A DNA stretch of 64,000 nt from a bacterium. GTDB lineage: Bacteria > Sysuimicrobiota > Sysuimicrobiia > Sysuimicrobiales > Segetimicrobiaceae. Shown here piece after piece: positions 18,153-36,379 of the stretch (position 1 is the first letter of the stretch; each line of letters starts with the position of its first letter). Below the pieces are notes generated by a model. That model was not told where the DNA came from and ran no database searches. It saw nothing but the letters and a program-made list of their open reading frames with translations. The translations under genes and the position numbers were made by a program. Location: the NCBI GenBank assembly GCA_035307565.1, contig DATGHZ010000031.1, positions 29,061 through 93,060 of the forward strand. The letters are read 5' to 3'.

Positions 18153-18159
18153 CGGACGG

Positions 18160-18861: not shown

Positions 18862-21095
18862 ACACGGTCCGGGGTCAGCGGCATGTCGAGGCGCCCGACC
18901 CCGAGCGGACGCAGCGCGTCGTGCACCGCGTTGACGAGCGCGGGCGGGGCGCCGATCGTGCCGGACTCGCCGATCCCCTTCGCGCCGAGGGGATTGAGGG
19001 GCGACGGTGTTTCCTGCATCGCCGAGACGACCGGCGGGAGGTCGGCCGCGGTCGGCGCCGCGTAGTCCAGGAGCGAGGCCGTGAGCGGCTGGCCGTCGTC
19101 GCCGTAGACGACCTGCTCGAGCAGCGCCTGCGCGAACCCCTGCGCCAGGCTGCCGTGGACCTGGCCTTCGACGAGCAGCGGATTCACGACCCGGCCGCAG
19201 TCGCTCACCGCCACGTACGCGAGAACGTGGATCCCGCCGGTCTCCGGGTCCACTTCGACGACGGCGACGTGCGCGCCCGAGGGCGTCATCACCCCTTCGG
19301 ATTCGAACCGCGCGCTCGCCGCCAGCGGTTCCCCGGCCTGCGCGGCGATCTCCCGCAAGGTCAGCGACCGGTTCGGCACGCCGCGCACCCCGGCCCGCCC
19401 GCGCTCGAGGACGATGTCGCGCGGCGCGGCTTCCAAGAGGCGCGCCGCCGCGGCGACGATGCGCTCCCGCACCTCCGCGCCCGCCCGCGTCATCGCGGAG
19501 CCGCCGAGCGAAAGCGACCGGCTCGCAAATGTGCCGACACCCTCCGCGATCGCGTCCGTGTCGCCGTGGCGCACCGTGATGTCGTCCGGCGTCAGCCCGA
19601 GCGCGTCGGCGAGGATCTGGCTGAGCGCGGTGGCCAGGCCCTGGCCGTGCGGCGACGATCCCGTCACGGCGGTGACGTGGCCGGACGGCTCGACCCGCAC
19701 GCTCGCGGTTTCCCAGGTCTCGCCGCCGCCCGCGGTTTCAATCCACGTGCTGAGGCCGATGCCGAGCGGCGCGCCGCCGCCCCGCCGGCGGCGCGCCTGC
19801 TCGCGGCGCCACCGATCGTACTCCGACAAGCGCAAGGCCCGGTCCAGCAGCGCCGGATAATCTCCGGAATCGTAGACGAGCCCGGTCGCGCCCTCGTATG
19901 GGAACGTCTGAATGAAATTGCGCCGGCGGGTCTCCGCGGGGTCGAGGCCGAGGCGGGCCGCGACGAGATCCATCAGCCGCTCAATATAGTAAGCTCCTTC
20001 CGGACGGCCGGCGCCCCGGTACGGTCCGCTCGGCGCCTTTGTCGTCGCGACGCCGCGGAGCCGCAGCCGTACGTTGCGGATCCGGTAGGCGCCGCAGCCG
20101 ACGAGCGTCGTGAGCGTCGGGATGATGGCGGTCACGGAATAGCAGTAGGCGCCCAGGTCCGCGAGGATGTCACCGTCGATTGCCGTGACGGTCCCGTCGG
20201 CGGAAGCCGCCGCACGCAGTCGCGCGCGCTGTCCCCGGCCGTGAATCGTCGTCTTCAGGTTCTCGACGCGGTCTTCGGCCCAGGCGACTGGACGCCGCAG
20301 GCCGCGGGCGAGATAAGCGGCCAGGGCCTCTTCCGGGTAATCGATCCCCTTGACGCCGAACCCGCCGCCGACGTCGGGCACGATCACGCGGACTTGTTCC
20401 GGCCCGACGCCGAGCACCTCGGCCAGCGTCTCCCGGGCGCCGTGCGGCGCCTGGGTGGACAGCGTGACCTCGAACCGGCCCGAGCCCGCGTCATACCGGG
20501 CGACCACGCCGCGGCACTCGAGCGGCATCCCGGCGAGCCGCGGCTGCTCGAAGGTCGCCTCCACCACCACAGCCGCGTCGCGAAACGCCGCCTCCGGCCG
20601 GCCCGCGCGAACGTCCTGGGTAAAGACGACGTTGCCGCCGAGCCGCGCGTGTAAGACCGGCGCGCCCGGCGCAAGCGCGGCATCGACGTCCACGACGGCC
20701 GGCAGCGGTTCGTAGTCGACCTGAACCGCCTCGGCCGCGTCCTCGGCCGCGTACCGCGACTCCGCGACAACGACCGCCACGGGCTGTCCCACGTACCGGA
20801 CGACGGCGGCGGCGAGCAGTGGATGCGTCGCGGCGGCGATGCCCGGAAACATCGGGGGCGCGGGAATCCGCGGGACCGGCGACGGCAGGTCCCGCGCGGT
20901 CAGCACCGCGGCGACGCCACGCATGGCGCGCGCGGCCGCGGCATCGATCCGGAGAATACGGGCGTGCGCGTGCGGGGACCGGACGACCGCGGCGTGGACC
21001 ATCCCGGGGAGGCGGATGTCGTCCAGAAATCGCGAGCCGCCGGTGAGCAGGCGGCGGTCCTCCCGCCGCCGGAGCGGCGCGCCCACGTAGGCCAT
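18819..21095 (-). CDS. Molybdopterin-binding subunit of the xanthine dehydrogenase / CO dehydrogenase (CoxL) / aldehyde oxidase family; no medium or small subunit genes adjacent
   Basis: ATG internal to track ORF 18819..21242: MAYVGAPLRRREDRRLLTGGSRFLDDIRLPGMVHAAVVRSPHAHARI..., about 760 aa typical large subunit. Neighbours are HAD and GNAT genes rather than FAD or 2Fe-2S subunits. Confidence 0.85.
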   Translation of the reverse strand: MAYVGAPLRRREDRRLLTGGSRFLDDIRLPGMVHAAVVRSPHAHARILRIDAAAARAMRGVAAVLTARDLPSPVPRIPAPPMFPGIAAATHPLLAAAVVRYVGQPVAVVVAESRYAAEDAAEAVQVDYEPLPAVVDVDAALAPGAPVLHARLGGNVVFTQDVRAGRPEAAFRDAAVVVEATFEQPRLAGMPLECRGVVARYDAGSGRFEVTLSTQAPHGARETLAEVLGVGPEQVRVIVPDVGGGFGVKGIDYPEEALAAYLARGLRRPVAWAEDRVENLKTTIHGRGQRARLRAAASADGTVTAIDGDILADLGAYCYSVTAIIPTLTTLVGCGAYRIRNVRLRLRGVATTKAPSGPYRGAGRPEGAYYIERLMDLVAARLGLDPAETRRRNFIQTFPYEGATGLVYDSGDYPALLDRALRLSEYDRWRREQARRRRGGGAPLGIGLSTWIETAGGGETWETASVRVEPSGHVTAVTGSSPHGQGLATALSQILADALGLTPDDITVRHGDTDAIAEGVGTFASRSLSLGGSAMTRAGAEVRERIVAAAARLLEAAPRDIVLERGRAGVRGVPNRSLTLREIAAQAGEPLAASARFESEGVMTPSGAHVAVVEVDPETGGIHVLAYVAVSDCGRVVNPLLVEGQVHGSLAQGFAQALLEQVVYGDDGQPLTASLLDYAAPTAADLPPVVSAMQETPSPLNPLGAKGIGESGTIGAPPALVNAVHDALRPLGVGRLDMPLTPDRVWRAIRDARSAGAT

Positions 21096-22454: not shown

Positions 22455-23462
22455 ATGACTCCCGAGCTCGACTTGGCGCCGGGCCGTCCTCCGTTCAACA
22501 TCACCCGCGCCGCCCACGTCGAGTTTCGCGTGACCGACCTCGGACGCGCCCGTGAGTTCTACGTAGACCTCCTCGGATTCGTCGAGTCCGCGCGCGATCG
22601 CGACCGGCTCTACCTGCGGGGCTACGAGGAACGCGACCACCACAGCCTGGTGCTGCGGCGCGCCGCGTCGCCGGGCGCCGCGCATCTTGCGTACCGGGTC
22701 GCCGCCGACGAGGACCTGGTCCGCCTCGAGCATCTGGCCGGCCGGCACGATCTGCCCGTCCGCTGGGTGGAGGAAGCGCATGTGGGCCGCACGCTACGCT
22801 TTCAGGATCCGTTCGGGCTGCCCGTCGAGTTCGTGTATCACATCGAGCAGGTCGAGCGGCTGCTGCAGCGCTTCGATCTGTACCGCGGCGTGTTCGCGAT
22901 GCGCTTGGACCATTTCAACTGCCAGATGCCCGATGTCGCGGCGGCGGCGCACTGGTACCTGCGCGAACTGGGATTCGGCTGCTCGGAGTACGCGACCGCC
23001 GAGGATCCGTCGCAGCTGACGGCGATCTGGCTGCGCCGGAAGCCCAACGTCCACGATCTGGCCCTGATGACCGGCGTCGGCCCGCGCCTGCACCACGCGG
23101 CGTATTGGGTGCCGGACCAGCAGAGCGTTCTTCGCGCGTGCGACATTCTGGCCGCCGCCGGCTTCCCGCGGCAGATCGAGCGGGGCCCGGGCCGCCACGG
23201 ACTCGGCAACGGCTTTTTCCTGTACCTCCGCGACCCGGACGGCAACCGGATCGAACTCTATACCGGCGACTACATGATCGCGGACCCGGACTGGAAGCCG
23301 ATCCACTGGGCGTTCGACGATCCGCGGCGCGCCACATTCTGGGGAATACCCGCACCCGCCTCGTGGTTTGACGAAGCGTCGCCGGTGGAGTCCGTCGTCG
23401 ACGGCTCGTTTGTCGAGACGCGGGCGCCGCTGCTTCGCGACAGACCGGTCCTGGCCACTTAG
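22455..23462 (+). CDS. Type I extradiol ring-cleavage dioxygenase (VOC superfamily, two-domain; catechol/3,4-dihydroxyphenylacetate 2,3-dioxygenase-like)
   Basis: ATG with RBS ggaggtgg internal to track ORF 21561..23462: MTPELDLAPGRPPFNITRAAHVEFRVTDLGRAREFYVDLLGF...; a second VOC module ...LHHAAYWVPD...; 335 aa. Confidence 0.8.
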   Translation: MTPELDLAPGRPPFNITRAAHVEFRVTDLGRAREFYVDLLGFVESARDRDRLYLRGYEERDHHSLVLRRAASPGAAHLAYRVAADEDLVRLEHLAGRHDLPVRWVEEAHVGRTLRFQDPFGLPVEFVYHIEQVERLLQRFDLYRGVFAMRLDHFNCQMPDVAAAAHWYLRELGFGCSEYATAEDPSQLTAIWLRRKPNVHDLALMTGVGPRLHHAAYWVPDQQSVLRACDILAAAGFPRQIERGPGRHGLGNGFFLYLRDPDGNRIELYTGDYMIADPDWKPIHWAFDDPRRATFWGIPAPASWFDEASPVESVVDGSFVETRAPLLRDRPVLAT

Positions 23463-23473
23463 CACGTAAAGGG

Positions 23474-24277
23474 GTGACGGTCGTGCCGGCGTGGGATCTC
23501 AGTGTGGCGGGCAAGGCGGCCGTCGTCACCGGCGCCGGCAGCGGAATCGGCCGCGCGACGGCTCTCGCCCTAGCCGCCGGCGGCGCCTCCGTCTGCATCG
23601 CGGACCTCCGGCCCGACGCGGCACGCGCGGTCGCCTCGGAAGTCGAGCGCGCCGGCGGGCGCGCGGTGGCCCTCGCCGCGGACGTGAGCCGCTCCGACGA
23701 CGTGCGCCGGTTCATCGGGGAGGCGGTGCGCGCGCTGGGCCGGCTCGACATCCTCGTCAACAACGCCGGTCTGCAGTACATCGCGCCGATTCACGAATAC
23801 CCGGAGGACAAGTGGCAGCTGCTGATCGGCGTCATGCTGACCGGCACGTTTCTCTGCACGAAGTACGCGCTGCCGCACATGATCGCCAACCGGTGGGGGC
23901 GGATCGTCAACCTGGCCTCGATCCACGGGCTCGTGGCCTCGCCTTTCAAGAGCGCGTACACCGCGGCCAAGCACGGCATTGTGGGCTTCACGCGGGTGCT
24001 GGCGCTCGAAGTCGCCGAGTACGGCATCACCGCGAACGCCGTTTGTCCCGGATACGTCCGCACCCCGCTCGTGGAAGGCCAGATCGCCGATCAGGCGAAG
24101 GTGCACGGGATTCCGGTCCAGGACGTGGTGGAGAAGGTCATGCTGGAGCCGGCCGCGATCAAGCGGCTTCTCGAGCCCGACGAGATCGCCGGCGCCATCC
24201 GCTATCTGTGCAGCGACCTCGCCGGCGGGATCACGGGCACCACGCTGGCCGTCGATCAGGGGTGGACCGCGCGCTAG
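23474..24277 (+). CDS. Short-chain dehydrogenase, 3-hydroxybutyrate dehydrogenase-like
   Basis: Track ORF; TGAGSGIG, NNAG, catalytic YxxxK (SAYTAAKHG). Strong similarity to BdhA-type SDRs. An alternative GTG at 23504 gives the typical short N-terminus. Confidence 0.85.
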   Translation: MTVVPAWDLSVAGKAAVVTGAGSGIGRATALALAAGGASVCIADLRPDAARAVASEVERAGGRAVALAADVSRSDDVRRFIGEAVRALGRLDILVNNAGLQYIAPIHEYPEDKWQLLIGVMLTGTFLCTKYALPHMIANRWGRIVNLASIHGLVASPFKSAYTAAKHGIVGFTRVLALEVAEYGITANAVCPGYVRTPLVEGQIADQAKVHGIPVQDVVEKVMLEPAAIKRLLEPDEIAGAIRYLCSDLAGGITGTTLAVDQGWTAR

Positions 24278-24340
24278 CCGCGCGGCGGCCGCGATGGACA
24301 TCCGCCGGTCGGCGTTCTGGGGTCCCGCCCCCCCACGGCC

Positions 24341-25381
24341 GTGACCAAAATCGCGTTCCGCGATGTGACCAAAACGTACCCCGGCGCCCACCGCCCGGTG
24401 GTGGACGGGGTGACGTTCGATGTGCCCGAGGGCGTGATCTGTATGCTGCTCGGGACGTCCGGGGCCGGCAAGACCACGCTGCTGCGGATGGTCAACCGGC
24501 TGGTCGATCCGAGCTCCGGGTCGATCACCGTCGACGGCCGCGACGTGCTCTATGAAGACCAGGTCGCGCTGCGCCGCCGCATCGGCTACGTCATCCAGCA
24601 GATCGGCCTGTTCCCGCACATGACGGCGGCGGAGAACGTTCGCGTCACCGGCGAAGTCGCGGGCCGGTCTCGAGCCGAGATGACGCGCCGCGCGGACGAG
24701 TTGCTGACGCTGGTCGGCCTGGATCCGGCCGAATACCGTTCGCGGTACCCGCGCCAGCTGTCGGGGGGCGAGCAGCAGCGCGTCGGGCTCGCGCGCGCCC
24801 TCGCCACCGACCCGGGCATCCTGTTGATGGACGAGCCGTTCGGCGCCCTGGACGCCATCACGCGAAGCCGGATGCAGGCCGAGTTGCTCAGGATCCAGCG
24901 GGGCGTGCGCAAGACGATCCTCTTCGTGAGCCACGACGTGGACGAAGCCTTCCGGCTTGGTTCGCTCATCGCCGTGTTGTCGGAAGGCCGCCTGCTCCAG
25001 GCCGGGACGCCGGCCGACCTCCTGCTGCGCCCGGCGAACGACTTCGTGCGGCGCCTCGTCGGCGCGGACGCCGTCCTGCGTCAGCTGGAGTACGTGCCGG
25101 TCTCGGCCGCCATGACGGCCGGCGGAAGCGGCCCGGCGCCGCGCGACGGCGACGACGATGCGCGCTTGCAGCCGCCTGGCGCGGCCGGGGGACCGCGGCG
25201 GTTCCTGGCCAACGCTCCGCTGATGGAGGCGCTGCTCGCGCTGCTCGAGACGGGCGCGTCGGCCCTCCCGGTTGTCGCCGAGGGCACCGGGGAACCGGTC
25301 GGCTACATCACGCTCGCCGGCATCGGCCGCGAAATCGCCCACGCGCGCGGGGCGCCACACCCGGCGCCGCTTCGGCGCTGA
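24341..25381 (+). CDS. Osmoprotectant (glycine betaine/choline, OpuC/ProV-type) ABC transporter ATP-binding protein with C-terminal CBS-like domain
   Basis: Track ORF; Walker A GTSGAGKTT, signature LSGGEQQRV, Walker B ILLMDEP; C-terminal extension. Confidence 0.85.
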   Translation: MTKIAFRDVTKTYPGAHRPVVDGVTFDVPEGVICMLLGTSGAGKTTLLRMVNRLVDPSSGSITVDGRDVLYEDQVALRRRIGYVIQQIGLFPHMTAAENVRVTGEVAGRSRAEMTRRADELLTLVGLDPAEYRSRYPRQLSGGEQQRVGLARALATDPGILLMDEPFGALDAITRSRMQAELLRIQRGVRKTILFVSHDVDEAFRLGSLIAVLSEGRLLQAGTPADLLLRPANDFVRRLVGADAVLRQLEYVPVSAAMTAGGSGPAPRDGDDDARLQPPGAAGGPRRFLANAPLMEALLALLETGASALPVVAEGTGEPVGYITLAGIGREIAHARGAPHPAPLRR

Positions 25382-25389
25382 GGACGCCC

Positions 25390-26046
25390 GTGCGGTTTCT
25401 GCTGAATCCTTCGAACTATACGCTGAGCGATCCGTCGAGCGTCCCGAACCTCCTGGTGCAGCACCTGGCGATTGTGGGGACCGCCATGGGCATCGCGGTG
25501 CTCGTGGCGCTTCCGCTCGGCGCGTTTGTCGCGCGACGGCGCCGTCTGTACCTGCCGGTGGTCGGGGTCGCCGGCTTCTTGTACACGATCCCGGGCCTTG
25601 CGCTGCTGGCCGTGCTGGTGCCGATCACGGGTCTCGGTACCACGACCATTGTGGTGCCGCTCGTTCTCTACGCGCAGTTGGTGCTGATCCGTAACACCGC
25701 GGCCGCGATTCAGGCCATCGATCCCCTCGTGCTCGATGTCGGCCGCGCCGTGGGCATGACGAAGGGGCAACTGCTGCGGCGGGTCGTGGCGCCGCTCGCG
25801 CTGCCGCTCGTGATCGCCGGCATCCGCGTCGCGACGGTGACGACGATCGGCATCGCGTCGCTGGCGTCGCTCGTCGGCGCCGGCGGCCTCGGCGACCTCA
25901 TCTTCAGCAGCATCGAAAACGCGAACTACGACGAGGTGTTCGCCGGCGGCCTCGTGGTCGCGGCGCTCGCCGTCGTCGCCGACCTGCTGCTCCTGGCCGT
26001 CGAGACCGCGGCCGGGCGGTGGCGCGCCGCCGCGGTGAGCCGCTGA
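25390..26046 (+). CDS. ABC transporter permease (OpuCB-like)
   Basis: Track ORF, 218 aa, multi-TM, BPD_transp_1-like. Confidence 0.8.
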   Translation: MRFLLNPSNYTLSDPSSVPNLLVQHLAIVGTAMGIAVLVALPLGAFVARRRRLYLPVVGVAGFLYTIPGLALLAVLVPITGLGTTTIVVPLVLYAQLVLIRNTAAAIQAIDPLVLDVGRAVGMTKGQLLRRVVAPLALPLVIAGIRVATVTTIGIASLASLVGAGGLGDLIFSSIENANYDEVFAGGLVVAALAVVADLLLLAVETAAGRWRAAAVSR

Positions 26047-26696
26047 TGCCCGCGCTGCTGCGCTTTGTCCTGAGCCCCGGCGCCGACTACGCGGGGCATA
26101 CCGCCCAGTACCTCACGCTGTGCGCGGCCTCGTTCGCCGCGGCGGTCGTGCTCGGGGTGGCCGCGGGCGGGGCCGCCGCCCGGCGGCCGGTGCTGGCGTT
26201 TCTGGCGATCAACGTGAGCGGGATGGCGCGCGCGGTGCCGGTCATCGCGTTTCTGGCGTTCGCGATTCCCTACCTGGGCCTGGGCTTTGCCCCCGCGTTC
26301 GTGGCGCTCACCGTTCTAGGAATCCCGCCCGTGTTGTTGAATACCTGGGCTGGTCTCCGGGGCGTCGATCCCTCCGTCGTCGACGCGGCCCGTGGCATGG
26401 GCATGACGGGCCGGCAGATCGCCCTCCGCATCCAGGCGCCGCTTGTACTCCCCGTCGTCGCGTCGGGCGCGCGGACGTCCGCGGTCCAGATCATCGCGAC
26501 GGCCACCCTCGCCGCCATCATCGGCGCCGGCGGCTACGGAGACTACATCCTGTCCGGGCTCTACCAGGTCGATATGACCCAGATCCTGGCCGGCACGGTG
26601 CCCGTGTCGGGACTGGCGCTGCTCGCGGAACTCGGCCTGGGCGCGGTCGAGCGGGCGCTGACCTCGCCCGGAATGCGCGCGATCGGAACGGCGTAG
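26046..26696 (+). CDS. ABC transporter permease (OpuCD-like)
   Basis: Start MPALLRF... overlaps the previous stop (ATGA); multi-TM permease. Confidence 0.8.
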   Translation: MPALLRFVLSPGADYAGHTAQYLTLCAASFAAAVVLGVAAGGAAARRPVLAFLAINVSGMARAVPVIAFLAFAIPYLGLGFAPAFVALTVLGIPPVLLNTWAGLRGVDPSVVDAARGMGMTGRQIALRIQAPLVLPVVASGARTSAVQIIATATLAAIIGAGGYGDYILSGLYQVDMTQILAGTVPVSGLALLAELGLGAVERALTSPGMRAIGTA

Positions 26697-26746
26697 GGAG
26701 TGTTTGCAGCACGACGGTGGTTCGTGAAGGAGTCGGAAGGAGGAGG

Positions 26747-27667
26747 ATGACGGTGGGAAAGCGGCGAGGCGTGTTTCAAGGACAGCTGCTGGCGGTGCTC
26801 GTGGTCGGCGCGCTCGTGAGCGCGATCGTGCCGGGCTCGAGCCCCGGTGGTGCGGCCGCGGCCGCCCGGGGTCACCTGACCGTGGGCGGCAAGCTCGATA
26901 CGGAAGCGCAGTTGCTCACCAAGCTGTATGCGCTCGTGCTCCGTAACGCCGGGTTCGACGTCACCGAGAAGGCCAAGCTCGGCACCAACGATATCGTCCA
27001 CAACGCCATCACGAGCGGCCAGATCGACCTGTACCCCGAGTTCACGGCCACCGGGCTGGCGCGGCTGAAGCTCAAGACCACCCACAACGACCAGCGTGAC
27101 TATGCGCTCGTCCGGGCCGGCTACGAGAAGCAATTTCACATCACGTGGCTCGCCATGTCCCCGCTCAACGACACCTACGGCATCTGCACGACGCAGGCCG
27201 GGGCGGGCAAACTAGGGACGAAGGTCAGCGCCCTCGCGGAGGCGGCGCCCCGGCTCACCGTGGCGTCCCCGCCGGACGGCACGAGCGACCCCAACGTGCT
27301 GCCCGGCATGAAGGCCGCGTACGGCTTCGCCTTCGGAAAGGTCACGGTCCTCGACGAGGCCCTGACGTTCCCGGCGGTTCAGCAGGGCAAGGCCGACGTC
27401 AACGTGTGTTACACCACGAGCGCGCTGATCGCCAAGAACCACTTCGTCTTGCTGGACGACGACCATCACCTGTTCCCGATCTATCATCCGGCGCCGATCG
27501 TCCGCGACGGGACCCTCGCCAAGTGGCCCGATCTTGCCGCCGCGCTCAACCGGCTCGCGCCCAAACTGACGAGCGAAGTGAGCCGGCAGCTGCAGCTGCG
27601 GGTCGTGAGCGGCGCCACCGTCACGACCGCGGCGACGACCTGGCTCAAGAGCGCGGGGCTGCTGTAG
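26747..27667 (+). CDS. Glycine betaine/choline-type ABC substrate-binding protein (OpuAC/OpuCC fold), secreted
   Basis: ATG with RBS ggaggagga internal to track ORF 26120..27667: MTVGKRRGVFQGQLLAVLVVGALVSA... signal peptide; completes the 4-gene transporter. Confidence 0.82.
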   Translation: MTVGKRRGVFQGQLLAVLVVGALVSAIVPGSSPGGAAAAARGHLTVGGKLDTEAQLLTKLYALVLRNAGFDVTEKAKLGTNDIVHNAITSGQIDLYPEFTATGLARLKLKTTHNDQRDYALVRAGYEKQFHITWLAMSPLNDTYGICTTQAGAGKLGTKVSALAEAAPRLTVASPPDGTSDPNVLPGMKAAYGFAFGKVTVLDEALTFPAVQQGKADVNVCYTTSALIAKNHFVLLDDDHHLFPIYHPAPIVRDGTLAKWPDLAAALNRLAPKLTSEVSRQLQLRVVSGATVTTAATTWLKSAGLL

Positions 27668-27683
27668 GGCCGCCCGGGCGAGA

Positions 27684-28451
27684 GTGCGCCTCGCCGACAA
27701 GATCTGCCTCATCACGGGCGCCGGCTCGGGAATCGGCCGCGCCAGCGCGCTGGCGTTCGCACGCGAGGGCGGGACCGTCGTCGTGGCCGATGTGGATGGA
27801 CAGACCGGAGAGCGGGTAGCCGCCGACATCGCCGGTGCCGGCGGCCGGGCCGTCGCGGTGCGCACCGACGTCACGGATCCCGCGGCGTGCGGGCGCGCGG
27901 TGGCCGCGGCGCTCGACCGCTGGGGCCGCCTGGACGTGCTGTTCAACAACGCCGGCATCGGCGCCGTCGGCACGGTGGACGACGAGCCGCTCGATCAAGT
28001 GGACCGCGTCTGGGCCGTGAACGTCCGCGGGGTCTTTCTCATGTGCCGGGCGGCGCTGCCCCCGATGATGGCCCGGCGCAGCGGCTCCATCATCAACATG
28101 GCATCGGCGATCGCGGCGGCGGGGCTGGCCCGGCGCGCCTCGTACTCCGCGTCCAAAGGCGCGGTGCTGGCGCTCACGCGATCGATGCAGGTCGACTACG
28201 CGCCCTACAACATCCGTGTCAACGCGCTCCTGCCGGGGACGATCCACACGCCGCTCGTGGAGCGATATCTCCGCGACCACTATCCGGACTACGAGCAGGG
28301 ACTTGCCGGCATCCGCGCGCGGCAGCTCACGGGCGAGCTCGGACGGCCCGAGGACGTCGCCGCCGCGGCGTTGTTCCTGGCGAGCGACGAATCGCGGTTT
28401 GTGATGGGGTCCGGCCTCGTCGTCGACGGCGGCCTCACCGCCGGACGCTGA
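27684..28451 (+). CDS. Short-chain dehydrogenase/reductase (SDR)
   Basis: Track ORF; ITGAGSGIGRA, NNAG, YSASKGA. Confidence 0.85.
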   Translation: MRLADKICLITGAGSGIGRASALAFAREGGTVVVADVDGQTGERVAADIAGAGGRAVAVRTDVTDPAACGRAVAAALDRWGRLDVLFNNAGIGAVGTVDDEPLDQVDRVWAVNVRGVFLMCRAALPPMMARRSGSIINMASAIAAAGLARRASYSASKGAVLALTRSMQVDYAPYNIRVNALLPGTIHTPLVERYLRDHYPDYEQGLAGIRARQLTGELGRPEDVAAAALFLASDESRFVMGSGLVVDGGLTAGR

Positions 28452-28617
28452 GCGCCGCTGCCGGCGCCGGGTCACGCGCCGGCATGAATCGGCCGCGGCG
28501 GGCGCGAAGCGCATCCCGGGCGCGTAAGCACGCCGCACCGCGGCGTGGCGGCCGTTGAACGGCGCGCCGGCCGGAGGGACGGTGCGCTCATTTTTCCCGC
28601 GGGGGGGTGTCCCGGTC

Positions 28618-29427
28618 ATGCGCAAGTACAGGCTGCAGGACATGTCGTGGATGGAGGCGCAGGAGGCGTTCCGCCGCTCCGACACCGTCATCATGCCCGT
28701 GGGGACGCTGCACGGGCACGGGCCGAGCCCGATCGGCATCGATGCCATCTCGGTCGACGCGATCGCGGAGCGGGTGGGCCGGCAGACCGGGATGATGATC
28801 CTGCCGACACTCACCTACGGCGAAGACGACAAGATGCGGGACTATCCCGGCTCGCTCGCGATCAGCCAGAGCACGATGGAGGCGTTCTGCACGGACATCT
28901 GCCGCAGCCTCCGCCACAACGGTACGCGCAAGGTCATCATGCTGAACGGCCACGGCGGCAACCGCGAGCCGCTGACCCGTACCGGCCGCAACGTCCGCGA
29001 TCTGGGGATGCTCGTCGCAATCGTCGAGTGGTGGAACATCACGAAGCGCCTGCAGCCCGAGCTCTGCACGGACGGCACCCACATCGTCGAGCTCGCGGTC
29101 GCGCTCGCGGCGGGCGGAACGGAGATCGCCGACCTCCGGGGCGGGGGCTACAAGGGCGAGTGGGGGACACAGCCCCCGCTGCGAAAGCTGTTCGGCGAGG
29201 CCATCAAGCCCCTCGGGTTCAACAACTTCGAGTTCGGCGGCGCGCCGGTCATCATTCCGGTGGACGCGTGGGACATCGACGTCGCGAGCCCGCCGGAGGT
29301 CGACAAGCGCGACCTCGAGGCGCTGCGGCGGCGGGGCGAGCAGATCATCGATCGCGCCGCCGAGTACGTGATCGCGTTCGCCGCGGAGTTGCAGAAGGTC
29401 GACCCGGCGAGGGCGCTGGCGCAGTAA
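28618..29427 (+). CDS. Creatininase-family amidohydrolase (creatinine amidohydrolase / MftE-like)
   Basis: ATG internal to track ORF 28555..29427; family motifs ...IMPVGTLHGHGP..., ...ISQSTMEAF..., ...MLNGHGGN... Confidence 0.75.
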   Translation: MRKYRLQDMSWMEAQEAFRRSDTVIMPVGTLHGHGPSPIGIDAISVDAIAERVGRQTGMMILPTLTYGEDDKMRDYPGSLAISQSTMEAFCTDICRSLRHNGTRKVIMLNGHGGNREPLTRTGRNVRDLGMLVAIVEWWNITKRLQPELCTDGTHIVELAVALAAGGTEIADLRGGGYKGEWGTQPPLRKLFGEAIKPLGFNNFEFGGAPVIIPVDAWDIDVASPPEVDKRDLEALRRRGEQIIDRAAEYVIAFAAELQKVDPARALAQ

Positions 29428-29553
29428 TCTCGCCTAATTGCCCAAACCGAACAGACTTTCGCCAGGATCGCGGGGCGCGAATACGAAGTCACCAGGTTAC
29501 ATTCGCCGGGCGCGGCCGCGGGTCGCGGCTCAACGCGATGAGGGGGTGTGAGG

Positions 29554-30156
29554 ATGGGCTATAGCGTGGAGGGGCGTTTGCTTGAAGCGTGCTCATGTGC
29601 CGGGCCGTGTCCGTGCTGGGTCGGCGACGATCCGGACGGCGGCACCTGCGATACGGTGGTGTGCTACCACTACGACAAGGGCGAGATCAACGGCGTCAGC
29701 GTGGCGGGTCTCACACTGGCGCTCGTGGCCCACATCCCCGGCAACATCTTGAAGGGCAACTGGAAAGTCGCGGCCCACGTGGACAGCAAGGCGACGCCGC
29801 AGCAGAAAGACGCGATTCTCGCGGCCCATACGGGCAAGCTCGGCGGACCGCTGGGAGACCTCGCGCCGTTGATCGGCGAGGTTGTCGGGGTGTACGACGT
29901 GCCGATCGACTTCAACATCGTCGAGGGCAAGGGGACGCTCCGGATCGGCGATATCGTCTCCGCCGAGATGCAGCCATACACCGACGCGCAGGGCCGGCCG
30001 ACCAAACTCGTCGACTCCATCTTCAGCACCATCCCGGGATCGCCGGCCTACGTCGGCAAGGCGATGAACTTCCGGGTGAATCTACCGAAGCATGACATGA
30101 CATGGGAGTTCAACGGACGCAACGCGGTGCTCGGGCCCTTCAAGTTTGAGGTGTAA
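29554..30156 (+). CDS. DUF1326-family protein (Cys-rich N-terminus)
   Basis: ATG after RBS agggggtg; MGYSVEGRLLEACSCAGPCPCWVGDD... carries the conserved DUF1326 CxC..CPC motif. Confidence 0.7.
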   Translation: MGYSVEGRLLEACSCAGPCPCWVGDDPDGGTCDTVVCYHYDKGEINGVSVAGLTLALVAHIPGNILKGNWKVAAHVDSKATPQQKDAILAAHTGKLGGPLGDLAPLIGEVVGVYDVPIDFNIVEGKGTLRIGDIVSAEMQPYTDAQGRPTKLVDSIFSTIPGSPAYVGKAMNFRVNLPKHDMTWEFNGRNAVLGPFKFEV

Positions 30157-30207
30157 CGGCGCGCCTCGCACGAGGCGGGAGACGTCCGGGCTAGGGCACC
30201 CGCGGCC

Positions 30208-30999
30208 ATGATCGGCGTGGTCCGCACGGCCGACGACCAGCGGTGGTACCGTCTGGCCGTGGGGACGCTGGTGCTGCTGGCGTGGGCCGTGCTCGCCGCC
30301 TGGGGCGCATCGCCGTTCGCCGGACTACTCGACCACCGGGGGATCGGAGGGGGATCGCTCTCCGTCTCCCGGGTGGTCGTGTTCGTGGCCGGGTGGACCC
30401 TCATGGTGATCGCCATGATGCTGCCCGGCAGCCTGCCGCTGATCAACCTCTTCTCCCGGATGGCCGCCGCGCGCTCCGGTGGGCCGTCGCTGGTGGCGCG
30501 GCTCGTCCTCGGCTATCTCGGTGTGTGGGCCGCCTTCGGCGCGGCCGCGTTCCGGGCCGACGCGTACGTGCACGCCGCGGTCGCGCGCACCCCGGCGGTG
30601 GCCCAGGCATCGGAGTGGATCGGCGTCGCGGTTCTGCTGGTAGCCGGTGTCTACCAAGTGACGCCCCTCAAGGACATGTGCCTCACCAAGTGCCGGTCGC
30701 CCTACTTATTTCTCGCCGAACACTGGCGAGGCCACACGCCCGCCCGGGACGCGCTGGCGTTGGGCGCGCGGCACGGGCTCTTTTGCGTCGGCTGCTGCTG
30801 GACGCTCATGCTGCTCATGTTCGCCGTGGGCGGCGTGAACTTGGGCTGGATGCTGGCGCTCGGCGCGCTGATGGCGGCCGAACGGTCGTTCCGCTGGGGC
30901 CGCCACCTCACGGTGCCCGTGGGCGCGGCGTGTCTGCTCGCCGCGATCGGTCTCGTCTACCGCGTGCCGTTGATCGCCGGGGTGTTTCGCGGCTCGTAG
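30208..30999 (+). CDS. DUF2182-family integral membrane protein (predicted metal-binding)
   Basis: Track ORF, 263 aa, about 6 TM; conserved ...LKDMCLTKCRSP... and ...FCVGCCW... motifs. Typically partners DUF1326. Confidence 0.7.
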   Translation: MIGVVRTADDQRWYRLAVGTLVLLAWAVLAAWGASPFAGLLDHRGIGGGSLSVSRVVVFVAGWTLMVIAMMLPGSLPLINLFSRMAAARSGGPSLVARLVLGYLGVWAAFGAAAFRADAYVHAAVARTPAVAQASEWIGVAVLLVAGVYQVTPLKDMCLTKCRSPYLFLAEHWRGHTPARDALALGARHGLFCVGCCWTLMLLMFAVGGVNLGWMLALGALMAAERSFRWGRHLTVPVGAACLLAAIGLVYRVPLIAGVFRGS

Positions 31000-31029
31000 G
31001 AATTTTGGGCCCGGCGGGGCGGCCGGCGA

Positions 31030-31578
31030 TCAGCCGGCCTGGTCGAGCTTTTTGCCGATCCGCTTCACGCTGCCGTTTCTCCCGAACACCAGCAGCTGCG
31101 TGCCCCGCATGGCGCCGAAGATCACGTTCATCCATCCCTTGTCGAGATGCGGGATCATCGCCTCGTCGACGATGACCATGTCGGCGTCCCGGCAGCCGGC
31201 GGTCAGCGCCGCGTGCTGTCCTTCGAACACGATCACGTTGTGGCCGACGTAGCCGAGGCCCATGACATAGCCGAGGAAGGGAATCGCCTTCGACATACTG
31301 GCCATCGTCGGCTCGAACCGCGTGAAGGCGATCACGGCGATGTTGGACGGGCTGTGCGGAGGCGCGATTCTCTGGATCGCCTGGACGGAATTCGGGTCCA
31401 TCGAGCCGGGCCGCGGGCAGGGTTGGATGAACGTGGCGCGGCCTGGCGTGACCACGACGATGTAGCGCTGGCCGGCCGGCGCGGCGGTCAGCGTGGCGAT
31501 GTCCGGCCCTTCCGACGCGAGGCGCCAGGCTTTCTTGAGCCGCTCCTCGATGTCGGCAGGGCTGTCGACCTGCGGCAT
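31030..31578 (-). CDS. Hypothetical protein (182 aa), co-oriented immediately downstream of the large secreted protein
   Basis: Track ORF; no recognisable motif. 133 nt downstream of 31713..34076 on the same strand. Confidence 0.5.
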   Translation of the reverse strand: MPQVDSPADIEERLKKAWRLASEGPDIATLTAAPAGQRYIVVVTPGRATFIQPCPRPGSMDPNSVQAIQRIAPPHSPSNIAVIAFTRFEPTMASMSKAIPFLGYVMGLGYVGHNVIVFEGQHAALTAGCRDADMVIVDEAMIPHLDKGWMNVIFGAMRGTQLLVFGRNGSVKRIGKKLDQAG

Positions 31579-31712: not shown

Positions 31713-34076
31713 TTACTTGTGGTACGCGATGATTTTCACATCCGGGGTCATGTAATTAGCGCCGAGGAAGACGGCCAGCAGCACCGTATAGTCCCCGCGG
31801 CGGAGTCCCTCCGCGGGGTCGAAGGAATAGACGCCGTCCCGGGGCCCCGGCGCCGTTCCGGCCCTGACGACGCTGCCGTCCCGCGCCACGACGATGTAGC
31901 GGCAGACCGGATTCACATCGTCGTACGCGCCTGACGTGTTGCTGCCGAGCGCCTCCGTGACGATCTTGTAGTACCGGTCGTACTTAAACAATCGTTCCAC
32001 GTCAGGCCGGAACTCGATCCGGCCGCCGCGGATCAGCACCGTCCGGATGAACGCGCGCCGCGGATAGACTTGTTTGTCGAACGAACCGACCCCCAGCGGA
32101 TAACTGAGGTCGCGGAAGACGCCCAGGACGGCGCCCGTGCGCGACCACGACTGGAGCCGGTAGGGGCCGTTCGTGACCAGAAAATGGTGGCGGTCCCGGT
32201 AGAAGGCCCCGAGGGCCCGCCACCGTTTCCGTGCCTCGCCGGCCGTCACCCAGCCACGGAGGGCTTCGGGGACGTAGCCGCTCGCCGCGAACTGGTCGAC
32301 GAGGCGCGCCAGTTCGGCCGCCTGCGCGGGCGCACGGACGAGATCGAGGACGGGTACGCCGAGGCGCCCGGCCGCGCCGGATGAAAGCGCACCGATGCCC
32401 CGGCGGGCGGCTTCGTCCATCAGCGCGAGCACGTGCCAGGGCACCGTGCTCCACGGCATCGCCACGAGCGGCGTGTATGGACCGGCCGTTCCGTAGGCGA
32501 GGTACACTTGCACGATCGGCACGTCGTAGCGCAGCTGCAGGTCGGCGCCGAGGTTCAGCACGGCCTTGTCGACGCGGACGACTTTGATGCCGCGGAGAAA
32601 TCTTCGGACGAGCGCGCTGTCCCGTCCGACGGCCGGGTCGTATGCTCTCGCCTTCTGGTCCGCGGTCTCCCCCCATCGATACGCGAAGGCGAACGGATAG
32701 AGGACATCCGCGGTCGTCATCGTCGTGCCGTCGTGAAAGGCCGACGCGAGGACCCGGTATTCGACCATGTCGGCGGCCCGCCGGCCCGCGCCTACCCGAT
32801 CAAAGGCACCCGTGCCCGGATGCGGCAGCAGCGCGTCGGCGGGAATGTCGATCTCATGCCGCGACCCGCCGGGAGCGGGGACGCCCCCAAACACCCGCTG
32901 GAACTTCACGCTCCAGGTCTGCCAGGTCCCGATGCGATTGGCGATCCACCCGCCCCCGTAGGGCGCGGGCAGCATCGCCGGATCTCCCACGGCCGCCCAG
33001 AGCAGCTGTCCGAATGAATCCGTGAAGCCGGCCACCGGGTTCCACGGCGCGGCCGCGGAACCGGCCACGCCCAACCGCAGCACGCCGTTCCACGGAAAGT
33101 CTTTCAGCTTGGCCGTGCGGACGAAGATCCCGGAGTCGAACCCGTCGTAGGCATCGAAGCCGATGTTCTCCACGCCCGGCGAATACGCGCTGCTGTAGTA
33201 TTCGCGCCGCGTCGTGTACCCGACGACGGCGCGTTCGCAGCCGCTTTGGAGCAGGGACACGAGCCGGCGCTGCAGCCCGACGGTGTCGGCCTCGCTCTGC
33301 CCGGACCCGCCGTCCGTCAGCCGGCCGTAGATGCGCTCGACCTCCGAGCGGGTCCCTCGATCGGTCACGCCGGCCGACATCAGCAAATACGCGTCGAACC
33401 ACCCTTCCTCGAGCCACGGCGGGCCGATCCACCCCACAAACCCCGTCGTGTGCGGGCCCAACAGATCGCGCACCGGGACTGTCTCGACGCGGACGTCCCA
33501 CGCCGCCGCGCCGCCCGTTGGGTCGGCCGCCCTTCCGAGCAGCGCGGCCGCCGTGGTTCCACTCACCGCGACCGGCAGCCCCTCGAGGCCCGCGCCGGCC
33601 GGCACGGAGAATTGGCGCCGCGCCGCGGCCGCCAGATCGGCGTGCGCCAGATAGTCGGCATGGTACGGTGTCACCGGGTATGGGGCAAAGACGAACGCGC
33701 CGGGGCGCGCCTTCCGCGCCATTTGCGATTCGATCGCGGCCGCCACACGCCGGGTTGCGGCGCAGCGCGCGTCGCGATCCTTGAGCCGCTTCGGATTGGC
33801 GGTCAGGACGACGTAGGCGTCGAGCGATTCGACGGGTGTGACGTTGGCGGGCACGGGACCGTCGGCGTAGGGATCGCCGCCGACGAAGGCCTGGATCGAC
33901 GCGTGGGCAAGCGGGCCCGCCGCCGCGGCCGGCGTCATCGTTTCGATCCTGATTTCGTGCGGGTAATACGACGGGTCAAACGGCGACTCGTGCCCCGCCT
34001 GTGCCGGCACGGCGACGGCCAACACGAGCAGCGCCGCGCGGGCCCACCACGTGGGATGGTTATGCGCGCGGCGCAC
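31713..34076 (-). CDS. Large secreted protein, distantly SBP_bac_5 (peptide/nickel-type substrate-binding) -like; no linked permease
   Basis: Track ORF, 787 aa; signal peptide MRRAHNHPTWWARAALLVLAVAVPAQA; ...NGPYRLQSW... resembles the family-5 SBP GPY motif. Confidence 0.55.
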   Translation of the reverse strand: MRRAHNHPTWWARAALLVLAVAVPAQAGHESPFDPSYYPHEIRIETMTPAAAAGPLAHASIQAFVGGDPYADGPVPANVTPVESLDAYVVLTANPKRLKDRDARCAATRRVAAAIESQMARKARPGAFVFAPYPVTPYHADYLAHADLAAAARRQFSVPAGAGLEGLPVAVSGTTAAALLGRAADPTGGAAAWDVRVETVPVRDLLGPHTTGFVGWIGPPWLEEGWFDAYLLMSAGVTDRGTRSEVERIYGRLTDGGSGQSEADTVGLQRRLVSLLQSGCERAVVGYTTRREYYSSAYSPGVENIGFDAYDGFDSGIFVRTAKLKDFPWNGVLRLGVAGSAAAPWNPVAGFTDSFGQLLWAAVGDPAMLPAPYGGGWIANRIGTWQTWSVKFQRVFGGVPAPGGSRHEIDIPADALLPHPGTGAFDRVGAGRRAADMVEYRVLASAFHDGTTMTTADVLYPFAFAYRWGETADQKARAYDPAVGRDSALVRRFLRGIKVVRVDKAVLNLGADLQLRYDVPIVQVYLAYGTAGPYTPLVAMPWSTVPWHVLALMDEAARRGIGALSSGAAGRLGVPVLDLVRAPAQAAELARLVDQFAASGYVPEALRGWVTAGEARKRWRALGAFYRDRHHFLVTNGPYRLQSWSRTGAVLGVFRDLSYPLGVGSFDKQVYPRRAFIRTVLIRGGRIEFRPDVERLFKYDRYYKIVTEALGSNTSGAYDDVNPVCRYIVVARDGSVVRAGTAPGPRDGVYSFDPAEGLRRGDYTVLLAVFLGANYMTPDVKIIAYHK

Positions 34077-34147: not shown

Positions 34148-35521
34148 CTAGCCCGTAACCTTCGGCCAGGTCTTGTTGATCCAGTCCGACGTCCGCGTGT
34201 CGTCGCCCTTGGGCGCGGGCCAACCAGGCGGCGCGGTGATGCCGCGGATCGGGATCGTGATGACGCGGCTCGTGTCCATCGTCTGGAACGGATAGTTCGG
34301 GTAGTTCTTGGTGAACCCGGTCATCGCGTCCTTGTAGCCCTGGTGATTATCGGGACGGATGTACACGTACCCGCCGGGTCCGCTGTAGCCGAGGCCCTCG
34401 AGCTGGCCGATGATTGCCTCATCCTCCGGCCAGCCGCCGGTCAACTTGTTGGCCTTCTCAATCGCCGTCCTGAGCACGTTCATGGCGGTGTACGCGCCCT
34501 CGGCCTGGAAGTTCGGGTATTCCTTCCAGCGCGCGTAGTAGGCCCTGACGAACGTGTTGTTGAGCGGCCAGCGGTTTCCGGCAGGGAACGTGAAGTAGTA
34601 GTTCGCGTGGCAGCCGCCGATCACGCCCTCGGGGTGATCCTTGCCGATCGCCTGCGGGGCGACGCCGAGCGCGAGCGTGGTGGCGTACTTCATCTTCTTG
34701 TACAGGCCGTATCCCAGCGCCTGCTTGTAGAACGCGATGTAGTCGCCGCCCCAGACCGACGTGAACAGGATGTCCGGTTTCGCCGAGATGGCCTTGGTGA
34801 TGTGCGCGGCGAAGTCCGTGGTCCCCAGTTTGGGCCATCCCTCCATCACGACCTGGGACCCGGGCAGCAGCTTTTCGCTCACGATCCGCACATGCTGGAA
34901 GGCGTTCCGGCCGTACGCGTAGTCGGGGTGGATGTGCGCGATCCGGCGGACCTCGGGATACGTCTGCACCATCGCGAGCGCCGCGGTCACGCCGTCGGCC
35001 GACTGGATGTTGGTGATCCGGAAGATGTACTTCGGTTCGGGCACGGCCTTGTCGAACAGAAAGTCCGTGCAACCGTCGACGAAAATCGTGAGCACCTTGA
35101 GTTCTTCGGCGACGGGACCGAGCGCCGGCGTGTTGCCGCTGGACGTGATCCCCGTGAAGAAATCGATCTTCTCCGAGACCTTCAGCCGCCGGAGTTCTTT
35201 GACGTTCGCGTCCGTGCCGGCGTTTTCGTCGGCCTTGATGATGTCGATCTTGCGCTTGCCGAGGAGGCCGCCCTTTGCGTTGATCTCATCCGCGGCGAGG
35301 ACGGTGCCCTTGTACATCGGTTCGCCGAGGACCGCGGCGGGGCCCGAGAAGAACGTCATCTGGCCGACCTTGTAGGGCGTGTCGGGAATCTTGCCGGCCG
35401 GGGTCTGCGCTTCCGCGGCTCCCGGCGCTGTCAGTCCGGCTGCGCCGCCCAGTGCCGCCGCCCCGATGGCCGCGGCGCCGACCGTGATCCCCATTTGTTC
35501 GAAGAATTCTCGACGACTCAC
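34148..35521 (-). CDS. Branched-chain amino acid ABC transporter substrate-binding protein (LivJ/LivK family), Tat signal
   Basis: GTG with RBS aaggaag internal to track ORF 34148..35581: VSRREFFEQMGITVGAAAIGAAALG... twin-arginine signal; periplasmic-binding type I fold. Confidence 0.85.
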   Translation of the reverse strand: MSRREFFEQMGITVGAAAIGAAALGGAAGLTAPGAAEAQTPAGKIPDTPYKVGQMTFFSGPAAVLGEPMYKGTVLAADEINAKGGLLGKRKIDIIKADENAGTDANVKELRRLKVSEKIDFFTGITSSGNTPALGPVAEELKVLTIFVDGCTDFLFDKAVPEPKYIFRITNIQSADGVTAALAMVQTYPEVRRIAHIHPDYAYGRNAFQHVRIVSEKLLPGSQVVMEGWPKLGTTDFAAHITKAISAKPDILFTSVWGGDYIAFYKQALGYGLYKKMKYATTLALGVAPQAIGKDHPEGVIGGCHANYYFTFPAGNRWPLNNTFVRAYYARWKEYPNFQAEGAYTAMNVLRTAIEKANKLTGGWPEDEAIIGQLEGLGYSGPGGYVYIRPDNHQGYKDAMTGFTKNYPNYPFQTMDTSRVITIPIRGITAPPGWPAPKGDDTRTSDWINKTWPKVTG

Positions 35522-35644
35522 TTCCTTCTTATTAATGTCCGCCAAGCTTCCCCACCCCCTAATGTGCCGCGCCGATCCCATGTGGAAATCCGAACATTAA
35601 TCAGCCGCAACCGTCTATGTTAGCCGCGTTCACAAGGGGTTCCT

Positions 35645-36379
35645 TTATGCCGGCGCGGTTCCGGGGCGCGCGCGACTCACGGCCGGCGTGCCGGCCGGGC
35701 CGGCGGTCTCCGCCCGATTGATCAACCACGCGAGCGCCAGGACGGCCAGCGTTATCCCGATCAGCACGGCGAGGCTCGCCACGTGCGAGATGGTGGCTAA
35801 GAGCGCGAGCGTACCGCTGGTCAAGCCTTGGAAGGCGAGCCCGAGGACCGGGAGGATCGGCGCGCCACACCCCGCGACCCCGCAGGGAGACGTAAACAGC
35901 CCCAGCGTGCTGAGCACCGCGCCGGCGGCCCCGCCGCGTCCGCCCTGCGCGGCCGTCCAGCCTCGGCCCTCGAACACACGCCGGCGGCGGGCGTAGAACC
36001 AGAGCGCGAAATAGGCGCCGAACACGGCGCCCATATAGAGCCACCGGACGACGTCGGGCGGACTCGCCGAGAAGCCCCACTCGGGCTCATCGTACGGACT
36101 GCTGGCGATGAACCAAAAGAGCGCGACGTTGGTCAGGAACTCGATCTTGCGTGCGAACGGCACGGCCGGGGACATCGCCCACGCCGGGGCGTGCTTCAGC
36201 CACGGGTTGAAGGAGAAATGGTCGAACGGCTTGCGGAAGACGGTCAACACCACGACGGGCAGGAAGAGGTCCAGCGCGACGACGGCCAGCGCGACGCCGG
36301 CGAAGAGAAGCGGGCGCGCCCCGATGGCACGTCCGATCGTCACCAGGGTCCCCGAGAGGCCGCGCACGACGCCCAGCAT
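35645..36379 (-). CDS. Unknown integral membrane protein embedded in the liv operon
   Basis: Track ORF, 244 aa, 5-6 hydrophobic segments; CGVAGC (CxxxxC) motif; no family assigned. Lies between livF and the SBP gene. Confidence 0.55.
   Translation of the reverse strand: MLGVVRGLSGTLVTIGRAIGARPLLFAGVALAVVALDLFLPVVVLTVFRKPFDHFSFNPWLKHAPAWAMSPAVPFARKIEFLTNVALFWFIASSPYDEPEWGFSASPPDVVRWLYMGAVFGAYFALWFYARRRRVFEGRGWTAAQGGRGGAAGAVLSTLGLFTSPCGVAGCGAPILPVLGLAFQGLTSGTLALLATISHVASLAVLIGITLAVLALAWLINRAETAGPAGTPAVSRARPGTAPA

Follow-up and report, generated by a model that had tools for sequence, protein, structure and literature searches.

A pair of adjacent genes in a 64,000-nucleotide stretch of DNA from an uncultured lineage of Segetimicrobiaceae (phylum Sysuimicrobiota; assembly GCA_035307565.1, contig DATGHZ010000031.1, positions 29,061–93,060, hereafter the window) codes for a DUF1326 protein and a DUF2182 membrane protein. 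We read this pair as a Cu(I) relay, in which the membrane protein would hand the metal to DUF1326 as a cytoplasmic five-cysteine acceptor, and we give this reading a probability of roughly 45%. A first-pass annotation made from the sequence had proposed a metal or redox handling module, which is still the best general reading. The features of the pair, in window coordinates, are as follows.

29540–29546, + strand: Shine-Dalgarno-like GAGGGGG, 7 nucleotides 5' of the DUF1326 ATG, read from the sequence
29554–30156, + strand: DUF1326 gene (open reading frame [ORF] A), 200 amino acids, full-length Pfam PF07040
29590–29649, + strand: codons of the five-cysteine cluster of DUF1326, C13-x-C15-x3-C19-P-C21-W22 ... 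C32
29590–29619, + strand: CSCAGPCPCW of DUF1326, residues 13–22
30208–30999, + strand: DUF2182 / PF09948 ("PpoB2") membrane protein gene (ORF B), 263 amino acids
30403–30426, + strand: codons of M66-x3-M70-M71-L-P73, the methionine motif in transmembrane helix (TM) 2 of DUF2182
30679–30693, + strand: codons of C158-LTK-C162 of DUF2182, in the K/R-rich loop 152–188, predicted to be cytoplasmic
30772–30801, + strand: codons of H189-G-L-F-C193-V-G-C196-C197-W198, predicted cytoplasmic start of TM5
30784–30798, + strand: CVGCC of DUF2182, residues 193–197
31027–31055, + strand: weak candidate terminator after the pair (GC-rich hairpin and T-run), a match from a consensus scan only

The two genes lie on the + strand with a gap of 51 nucleotides, and the first-pass annotation was right about their adjacency and orientation, their families, and the placement of the CSCAGPCPCW, CLTKC, and CVGCC motifs. 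ORF A matches PF07040 over profile positions 1–177 of 177 (E 9.3e-53, 179.4 bits, cut-off 25), and ORF B matches PF09948 over positions 1–186 of 188 (E 1.1e-58, 198.8 bits, cut-off 28.7), both far above the cut-offs. There is no NCBIfam model for either protein. A GTG codon at 29548 is two codons 5' of the DUF1326 ATG; the ATG at 29554 was taken as the start because homologues are 200 amino acids long and begin with MGY or MAY. The ORF B protein is 100% identical to a deposited protein of a metagenome-assembled genome (MAG; P0121), and the locus is present in two public assemblies. The closest named relatives of the DUF1326 protein are from MAGs labelled Armatimonadetes (84% identity) and Candidatus Geohabitans of the Sysuimicrobiota (70% identity). 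The pair is the last unit of a + strand gene run, and the terminator-like hairpin at 31027–31055 overlaps the 3' end of a convergent gene (31030–31578).

A DUF1326 alignment was used to scan one genome per GTDB species, and the best 80 loci (52%–89% identity) were compared using ORFs called with a GC3-based scorer that had been validated on the deposited gene calls of the window. These loci come from Chloroflexota, Cyanobacteria, Acidobacteriota, Actinomycetota, Armatimonadota, Methylomirabilota, Nitrospinota, Gemmatimonadota, four proteobacterial classes, and two bins labelled archaeon, for a total of more than 10 phyla. A DUF2182 profile search identified the membrane protein gene directly adjoining DUF1326, in the same orientation, in 78 of the 80. 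In the remaining two, the contig ends less than 50 nucleotides after DUF1326, leaving all 78 informative loci paired. Recurrence of the pair in many genomes, as first proposed, is thus confirmed, and the pairing is essentially obligatory. Among these closer relatives, DUF1326 precedes DUF2182 in 76 loci and follows it in two; a broader metagenome sample contains 24 loci with DUF1326 first and 26 with DUF2182 first. Gene order is clade-specific. The intergenic gap has a median of 36 nucleotides and is 100 nucleotides or shorter in 56 of 61 cases. Pairwise divergence in one protein correlates with that in the other (Mantel r = 0.77, 0 of 999 permutations). The pair is also carried by annotated plasmids and chromids of Ralstonia solanacearum (~130 records), Cupriavidus, Burkholderia, Caballeronia, Paraburkholderia, Bradyrhizobium, Nocardioides, Rhodococcus, and Acaryochloris, and it is kept in Bacillus cereus and in an archaeon, Haloferax mediterranei, where identity has fallen to 24%–26%. 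One Actinobacteria genome has a tandem array of a DUF2182 gene, three DUF1326 paralogues, and a second DUF2182 gene (L082:5830-9492).

The DUF1326 protein is predicted to be a soluble, beta-rich barrel. Its AlphaFold model has this form (predicted local distance difference test [pLDDT] 86, predicted template modelling score 0.85), and no signal peptide was found; across the family, a median of about 13 residues lies ahead of the cysteine cluster. Residues C13, C15, C19, C21, W22, and C32 are invariant among 31 close homologues, and the five cysteines are also invariant in eight very distant homologues with identities down to 23%, including those of Bacillus and Haloferax. They are retained in DUF1326 orphans with no adjoining DUF2182, as on Sinorhizobium meliloti pSymA (L091:3833-4621) and in Streptomyces clavuligerus (L092:3986-4627). 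The cysteine cluster is the least confident part of the model (pLDDT 56–79), which is expected for a metal site modelled without metal. No relative of solved structure was identified in a profile search of PDB sequences. The best Foldseek match of the model in the PDB was acetoacetate decarboxylase (E 1e-4, TM-score 0.38), and the rest were noise.

Public data contain about 2,300 DUF1326 clusters at 50% identity. Sinorhizobium plasmids account for 52 DUF1326 records and five DUF2182 records. Two proteins combine a bacterial Ig-like domain (Big_3_5) with a full DUF1326 domain (P0341, 660 amino acids; P0314, 358 amino acids); unless these are gene-call merges, they would point to some family members being located outside the cytoplasm. 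A fusion of DUF1326 to the first 65 positions of PpoB2 (P0287) was considered as a Rosetta stone and rejected, as it looks like a frameshift merge.

The DUF2182 protein is predicted to have seven TM helices, with the N-terminus inside and the C-terminus outside. Six had been counted originally, and we prefer seven because hydropathy, the helices of the AlphaFold model (all-helical, pLDDT 78), and a family-wide positive-inside count agree. Averaged over the family, successive loops contain 2.4 (N-terminus), 1.2, 3.3, 0.7, 6.8 (loop 152–188), 1.85, and 0.24 (C-terminus) lysine plus arginine residues, and by the positive-inside rule these counts predict a cytoplasmic position for the CxxxC loop and the beginning of TM5. 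Fold relatives were sought with Foldseek against the PDB, which gave nothing better than E 0.3, and with a PDB profile search, which was empty. With no informative structural relatives, no function can be assigned from the fold of either protein.

Conservation was measured in 66 DUF2182 sequences that are partnered with DUF1326 and share 28%–80% identity with the window protein. All of them have M66, M70, M71, C158, C162, H189, C193, C196, C197, M201, M215, and M222. The proline of the TM2 motif, P73, is also present in 100% of these sequences, and M66, M70, M71, and P73 are kept in distant members. E225 is present in 65 of the 66, and H43, D118, H122, and M204 are each present in about 85%–93%. 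Taken with the invariant cluster of DUF1326, this supports the original description of the cysteine motifs as family hallmarks: five cysteines in each protein are invariant in partnered pairs. In the topology model, H43, D118, and H122 are predicted to be periplasmic, and the conserved methionines are predicted to be inside TM2, TM5, and TM6. The five cysteines are all predicted at the cytoplasmic surface, where a DUF1326 protein that has no signal peptide could reach them.

DUF2182 proteins also occur with other partners, and one of these has been studied experimentally. Pfam now names PF09948 "PpoB2, copper chaperone". According to a 2010 review by its discoverers, the PpoB2 gene of Marinomonas mediterranea follows that of the tyrosinase PpoB1, and its product is needed for copper transfer to PpoB1 and not to the laccase PpoA (PMC2855505). 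PpoB2 was the first COG5486 protein with an assigned role (PMC2855505). The earlier statement that the pair has no experimentally assigned function is therefore outdated, both for this reason and because of the knock-outs and peroxidase assays of DmdE and DmdF described below (PMC12992908). We identified the PpoB1-PpoB2 arrangement on Rhizobium phaseoli pRphaN841d (L093:2181-4600), where a short DUF2182 gene comes directly after a tyrosinase gene and DUF1326 is absent. On the Mycobacterium avium plasmid pP4-4a (L094:531-4579), a DUF2182 gene lies directly 3' of a MerR-type heavy-metal regulator and points away from the genes of a copper-translocating P-type ATPase and DUF1490; arsM and ArsR are nearby. 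The R. phaseoli and M. avium proteins were used to seed a metagenome scan, and the resulting 80 loci were classified by context.

DUF2182 with adjacent DUF1326: 53 loci (26 with DUF2182 first and 24 with DUF1326 first on the same strand, 3 on opposite strands); all five cysteines in 53
DUF2182 with adjacent tyrosinase: 5 loci; all five cysteines in 0
DUF2182 with neither partner and at least 700 nucleotides of flank on both sides: 6 loci; all five cysteines in 0
DUF2182 loci cut by contig ends: 16 loci; all five cysteines in 11

The full cysteine signature (C158, C162, C193, C196, and C197) is present in 119 of 119 DUF2182 proteins partnered with DUF1326 (66 from genomes and 53 from metagenome loci) and in 0 of 13 with another or no partner (the five tyrosinase-linked loci, the six with neither, and the two plasmid-borne proteins). 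In the window protein, all five positions are cysteine (CCCCC). All 13 others lack C196 and often also C158 or C197. Tyrosinase-linked proteins (L097, L098, L099, L100, and L109; the tyrosinase of L098 also has a DUF7868 domain) show CCCAC, CCCGC, and ACCNC at the five positions, and the Rhizobium protein shows ACCSC, without C158 and C196. Patterns among DUF899-linked, copper ATPase-linked, or partnerless proteins include CCCSS, FCCSS, and HCCGC. The extra cysteines thus go with the DUF1326 partner, a strong association and not a formal probability because the sequences are phylogenetically non-independent. In five of the six loci with neither partner, a DUF899 gene (PF05988) is adjacent to or overlaps DUF2182 (L122:3133-3861, L143:2853-3602, L144:3090-3830, L152:2302-3039 and 3796-4494, and L149:4518-5276), often with overlapping stop and start codons. 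DUF899 is thioredoxin/AhpC-like with an invariant CxxC, and with it the DUF2182 family appears to have a third kind of soluble partner.

The thioredoxin-like fold and CxxC of DUF899 fit a metal-free alternative, in which thiol-disulfide exchange or sulfane sulfur would be relayed to the DUF1326 cysteine cluster, as in DsbD/CcdA or in YeeE with the TusA-like YeeD. Invariant cysteines dominate both proteins of the pair, and some pairs occur in organosulfur contexts: dimethylsulfoniopropionate (DMSP) demethylation in Roseobacters, and sulfonate-type ABC transporter and luciferase-like monooxygenase genes near cyanobacterial pairs. However, DUF2182 has no sequence or fold similarity to DsbD/CcdA or YeeE, disulfide exchange leaves the conserved methionines and periplasmic His/Asp residues without a role, and both the tyrosinase partner and the PpoB2 phenotype concern copper. 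We consider a metal-free relay very unlikely.

A Cu(I) relay would account for these residues as follows. DUF2182 would take up the ion at periplasmic H43, D118, and H122; it would then pass it along intramembrane M66, M70, M71, M201, M204, M215, and M222 to C158, C162, C193, C196, and C197; and the ion would be handed over at the cytoplasmic face to C13, C15, C19, C21, and C32 of DUF1326. DUF1326 would be a dedicated acceptor in the client place held by tyrosinase beside PpoB2, and the pair would form a self-contained cassette for a thiophilic metal, most likely Cu(I), that is mobile both vertically and horizontally. The identity of the metal, the direction of transfer, and the contact between the two proteins are parts of the model that we infer. 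Copper-loaded DUF1326 could be an enzyme (such as the peroxidase reported for DmdF), a store or buffer, or a chaperone. Cu(I) is classically bound by CxC and CxxxC thiolates and by methionine ladders, for example in CTR1, CCS, Ace1/Mac1, CusF/CusA, and CopA. We favor the Cu(I) relay since the sole experimentally tested PF09948 member handles copper, since the family occurs in two independent copper contexts (with a tyrosinase, and with a copper ATPase and metal regulator), and since the conserved soft ligands are arranged as a series from outside to inside.

Several observations weigh against the copper relay. The sole experimental work on the pair reports H2O2 consumption and is silent on copper (PMC12992908). 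No copper gene recurs beside the pair in the ~130 DUF1326-partnered loci examined, and no recognizable copper enzyme or client occurs among the ~50 Pfam-scanned genes of the window. The DUF899 partner would be as compatible with thiol-redox chemistry as with a Sco-like copper site, and the signature count takes related sequences as independent. Closeness of the cysteines and docking of one protein onto the other are predictions of the model, and neither protein has a solved-structure relative by PDB profile search or Foldseek.

The same relay could instead carry another species, either for detoxification of Hg(II), Ag(I), Cd(II), Zn(II), or As(III), or to supply iron or sulfide for an Fe-S cluster on DUF1326. 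Such a relay would resemble Hg transfer from MerT/MerC to NmerA/MerA, and five invariant cysteines could ligate an Fe-S cluster. The M. avium DUF2182 gene sits among heavy-metal and arsenic genes (arsM, ArsR) besides the copper ATPase, and VIT1 and cation-efflux genes were each identified once beside pairs. By contrast, no mer, ars, czc, or suf/isc genes recur near the pair, intramembrane methionines favor Cu(I) or Ag(I) over Zn or Fe, and the only family member tested acts on copper (PMC2855505). Another cargo is quite improbable on this evidence.

The pair itself has been named DmdE (DUF2182) and DmdF (DUF1326) in Roseobacters, including Ruegeria lacuscaerulensis, in a 2026 EMBO J study, where the genes are described as "always adjacent" and read as acting together (PMC12992908). 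Knock-outs of dmdE and dmdF did not grow on DMSP, deletion of dmdA gave partial rescue, and DmdE is not a DMSP transporter (PMC12992908). Purified DmdF consumed H2O2 and gave an in-gel peroxidase signal, and reactive oxygen species rose in the dmdF mutant (PMC12992908). These results underlie an oxidative-stress alternative, in which DUF1326 is a peroxidase- or catalase-like enzyme that removes H2O2 and DUF2182 anchors it, re-reduces it, or senses stress. The AhpC/TSA-like DUF899 partner agrees with this, as do a cytochrome-c peroxidase gene ~4 kb from the pair in Ralstonia, an OsmC gene near it in Bradyrhizobium, and faint Foldseek matches of the DUF1326 model to catalase beta-barrels (E 0.2–0.9). 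However, the catalase matches have TM-scores of about 0.2, and neither Pfam nor NCBIfam places the pair proteins in a peroxidase-type family. The assay used 440 µg of protein per lane, with no kinetic constants quoted (PMC12992908), and a cysteine- or metal-rich protein can consume H2O2 adventitiously. Obligatory co-inheritance with a membrane protein studded with Met, Cys, and His is left unexplained, as are the tyrosinase service and the copper ATPase locus of the DUF2182 family. We therefore judge the oxidative-stress account unlikely. The peroxidase activity of DmdF is weakly documented and is compatible with the copper relay.

A broader form of the copper reading, which we offer tentatively and regard as doubtful, is that PF09948 comprises widespread, structurally unprecedented Cu(I) "insertases", each serving one neighboring client (tyrosinase, DUF899, or DUF1326). 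The five-cysteine subfamily with DUF1326 would then be an unrecognized route of copper into the bacterial and archaeal cytoplasm, ending with a new beta-barrel protein that carries a polynuclear Cu(I)-thiolate site. If so, the peroxidase activity of DmdF would be a property of the copper site, and the DMSP phenotype of the dmdE and dmdF mutants could reflect copper-dependent chemistry. One possibility is copper supply to the Cu-dependent methanethiol oxidase, which acts downstream of DMSP demethylation (PMC5739008).

The genes around the pair were compared by clustering all ORFs of the 80 genome loci and by Pfam searches of flanking genes. Among flanking genes of the 78 paired loci, no universal neighbor was identified. 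The most common neighbors are LuxR/AAA/TPR regulators (8 of 53), alpha/beta hydrolases (5–7), and major facilitator superfamily (MFS) transporters. An MFS transporter and an Orn/Lys/Arg decarboxylase next to the pair are restricted to Casimicrobiaceae-type Betaproteobacteria. Because neighboring genes vary, the pair itself is taken as the functional unit. Pfam searches of window genes and tblastn searches identified no tyrosinase in the window or the 80 related loci. On Caballeronia grimmiae plasmid p1, a tyrosinase-family gene is 2.3 kb upstream of a normal pair, on the opposite strand (L084:1374-2873).

Two genes directly upstream of the pair had been pointed out by the first-pass annotation.

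27684–28451, + strand: short-chain dehydrogenase/reductase (SDR) gene, upstream of the pair
28618–29427, + strand: creatininase-family gene, upstream of the pair

Both are present on the same strand, the second separated from the DUF1326 gene by 126 nucleotides (29428–29553), and they belong to a + strand run (22455–29427) that codes for a VOC/glyoxalase protein, an SDR, an OpuA-type ABC transporter (ATPase, two permeases, and an OpuAC binding protein), a second SDR, and the creatininase-family protein. The creatininase model was matched over the N-terminal 144 of 238 profile positions only. Possibly this run is an island for the catabolism of a quaternary amine or a cyclic amide, and the pair could be an accessory specific to that pathway: run and pair share one strand, the pair comes last, and the OpuAC-type betaine/sulfonium binding protein recalls the link of DmdE and DmdF to DMSP. 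The neighborhood does not bear this out. The run is syntenic only with the closest relative (L003), in which a 1.5-kb insertion with an opposite-strand gene parts it from the pair; the next seven relatives have the pair alone in common with the window, and neighbors differ across the 78 loci. The co-linearity noted earlier is thus uninformative about function, and a pathway-specific accessory role is hardly credible.

Three genes 3' of the pair, all on the – strand, have no Pfam or NCBIfam match: 31030–31578 (182 amino acids), 31713–34076 (787 amino acids, with a signal-peptide-like N-terminus), and 35645–36379 (244 amino acids, hydrophobic). They are located inside a Liv-type ABC transporter operon (binding protein at 34148–35581, with ATPases and permeases to 39798). 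The 787-amino-acid gene also adjoins the pair in L003, and the 182-amino-acid gene does not. Elsewhere in the window, positions 540–10845 are a chromosomal replication-origin neighborhood, with dnaN (540–1571, –), dnaA (1862–3271, –), yidC (5448–6251, +), jag/khpB (6248–7081, +), parB (8669–9667, +), and a 1.3-kb gap at 4137–5447. Positions 16878–21095 (–), upstream of the transporter island, code for an FAD-dependent oxidoreductase of the DAO family, a HAD hydrolase, and a molybdopterin aldehyde/xanthine-oxidase-type large subunit. At 60896–64000 (–), a DnaB helicase gene is split by intein splicing domains and a LAGLIDADG homing endonuclease and continues past the end of the window; local GC content falls to 0.565 at 60001–62000.

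The pair is already described, as DmdE/DmdF and as a DUF2182 and DUF1326 cassette, and the window copy is an ordinary, typical member in an uncultured lineage, with nothing special beyond that. New at the family level are the topology model of the relay, the partner-specific cysteine signature, and switching among three kinds of soluble partner. The biochemical role is disputed between two experimental claims, copper transfer for PpoB2 and peroxide removal for DmdF. The cassette is common and occurs in tractable settings, including the megaplasmid of Ralstonia solanacearum, Cupriavidus necator, plasmids of Bacillus cereus, and Haloferax mediterranei. On the megaplasmid of Ralstonia pseudosolanacearum GMI1000, the pair is located near 900.6–902.0 kb. 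If the copper model is true, the pair would represent a new prokaryotic way of delivering copper to cytoplasmic proteins, and a step of marine DMSP catabolism would be reinterpreted.

Compared by family and description, the window pair and DmdE/DmdF are drawn from the same two Pfam families and are encoded by adjacent, co-oriented genes. They differ in gene order, which is DUF1326 then DUF2182 in the window and dmdE (DUF2182) then dmdF in Roseobacters, and in host, which is a soil or groundwater-type MAG and not a marine member of the Rhodobacterales. No dmdR (GntR), dmdA (GCV_T), acuI, or dinB was identified among the scanned genes of the window. The dmdEF-like pairs reported from Beta- and Gammaproteobacteria and Actinomycetes are phylogenetically distinct and located away from DMSP genes (PMC12992908). 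The window pair belongs to this distinct dmdEF-like group, outside the DMSP regulon.

PpoB2 shares with the window protein its Pfam family over the full model, a polytopic membrane topology, and one soluble client encoded next door. Even tyrosinase-linked members keep M66xxxMMLP, C162, C193, C197, and E225. The client in the window is DUF1326 and not a tyrosinase, and the tyrosinase-linked proteins of Rhizobium and the five metagenome loci are shorter (~200–260 amino acids), lack C196, and often lack C158. Because there is no tyrosinase and the cysteine pattern is different, the window pair is not a PpoB2-type tyrosinase system. DUF2182 proteins linked to DUF899 or a copper ATPase are the same membrane family, with tight and often overlapping coupling to a soluble, cysteine-containing partner; they differ in that the partner is DUF899 (CxxC) or none and in that the cysteine signature is incomplete. 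Two further systems offer mechanistic parallels. In CTR1-type permeation, Cu(I) passes a methionine selectivity filter to a cytosolic Cys/His exit, and in the MerT/MerC-to-MerA cysteine relay a membrane cysteine pair hands Hg(II) to NmerA/MerA. Neither has a sequence or fold relationship to DUF2182, and the analogy is confined to how they work: as proposed for the pair, ions would enter at outer His/Met residues and pass by way of intramembrane ligands and cytoplasmic cysteines to a soluble partner.

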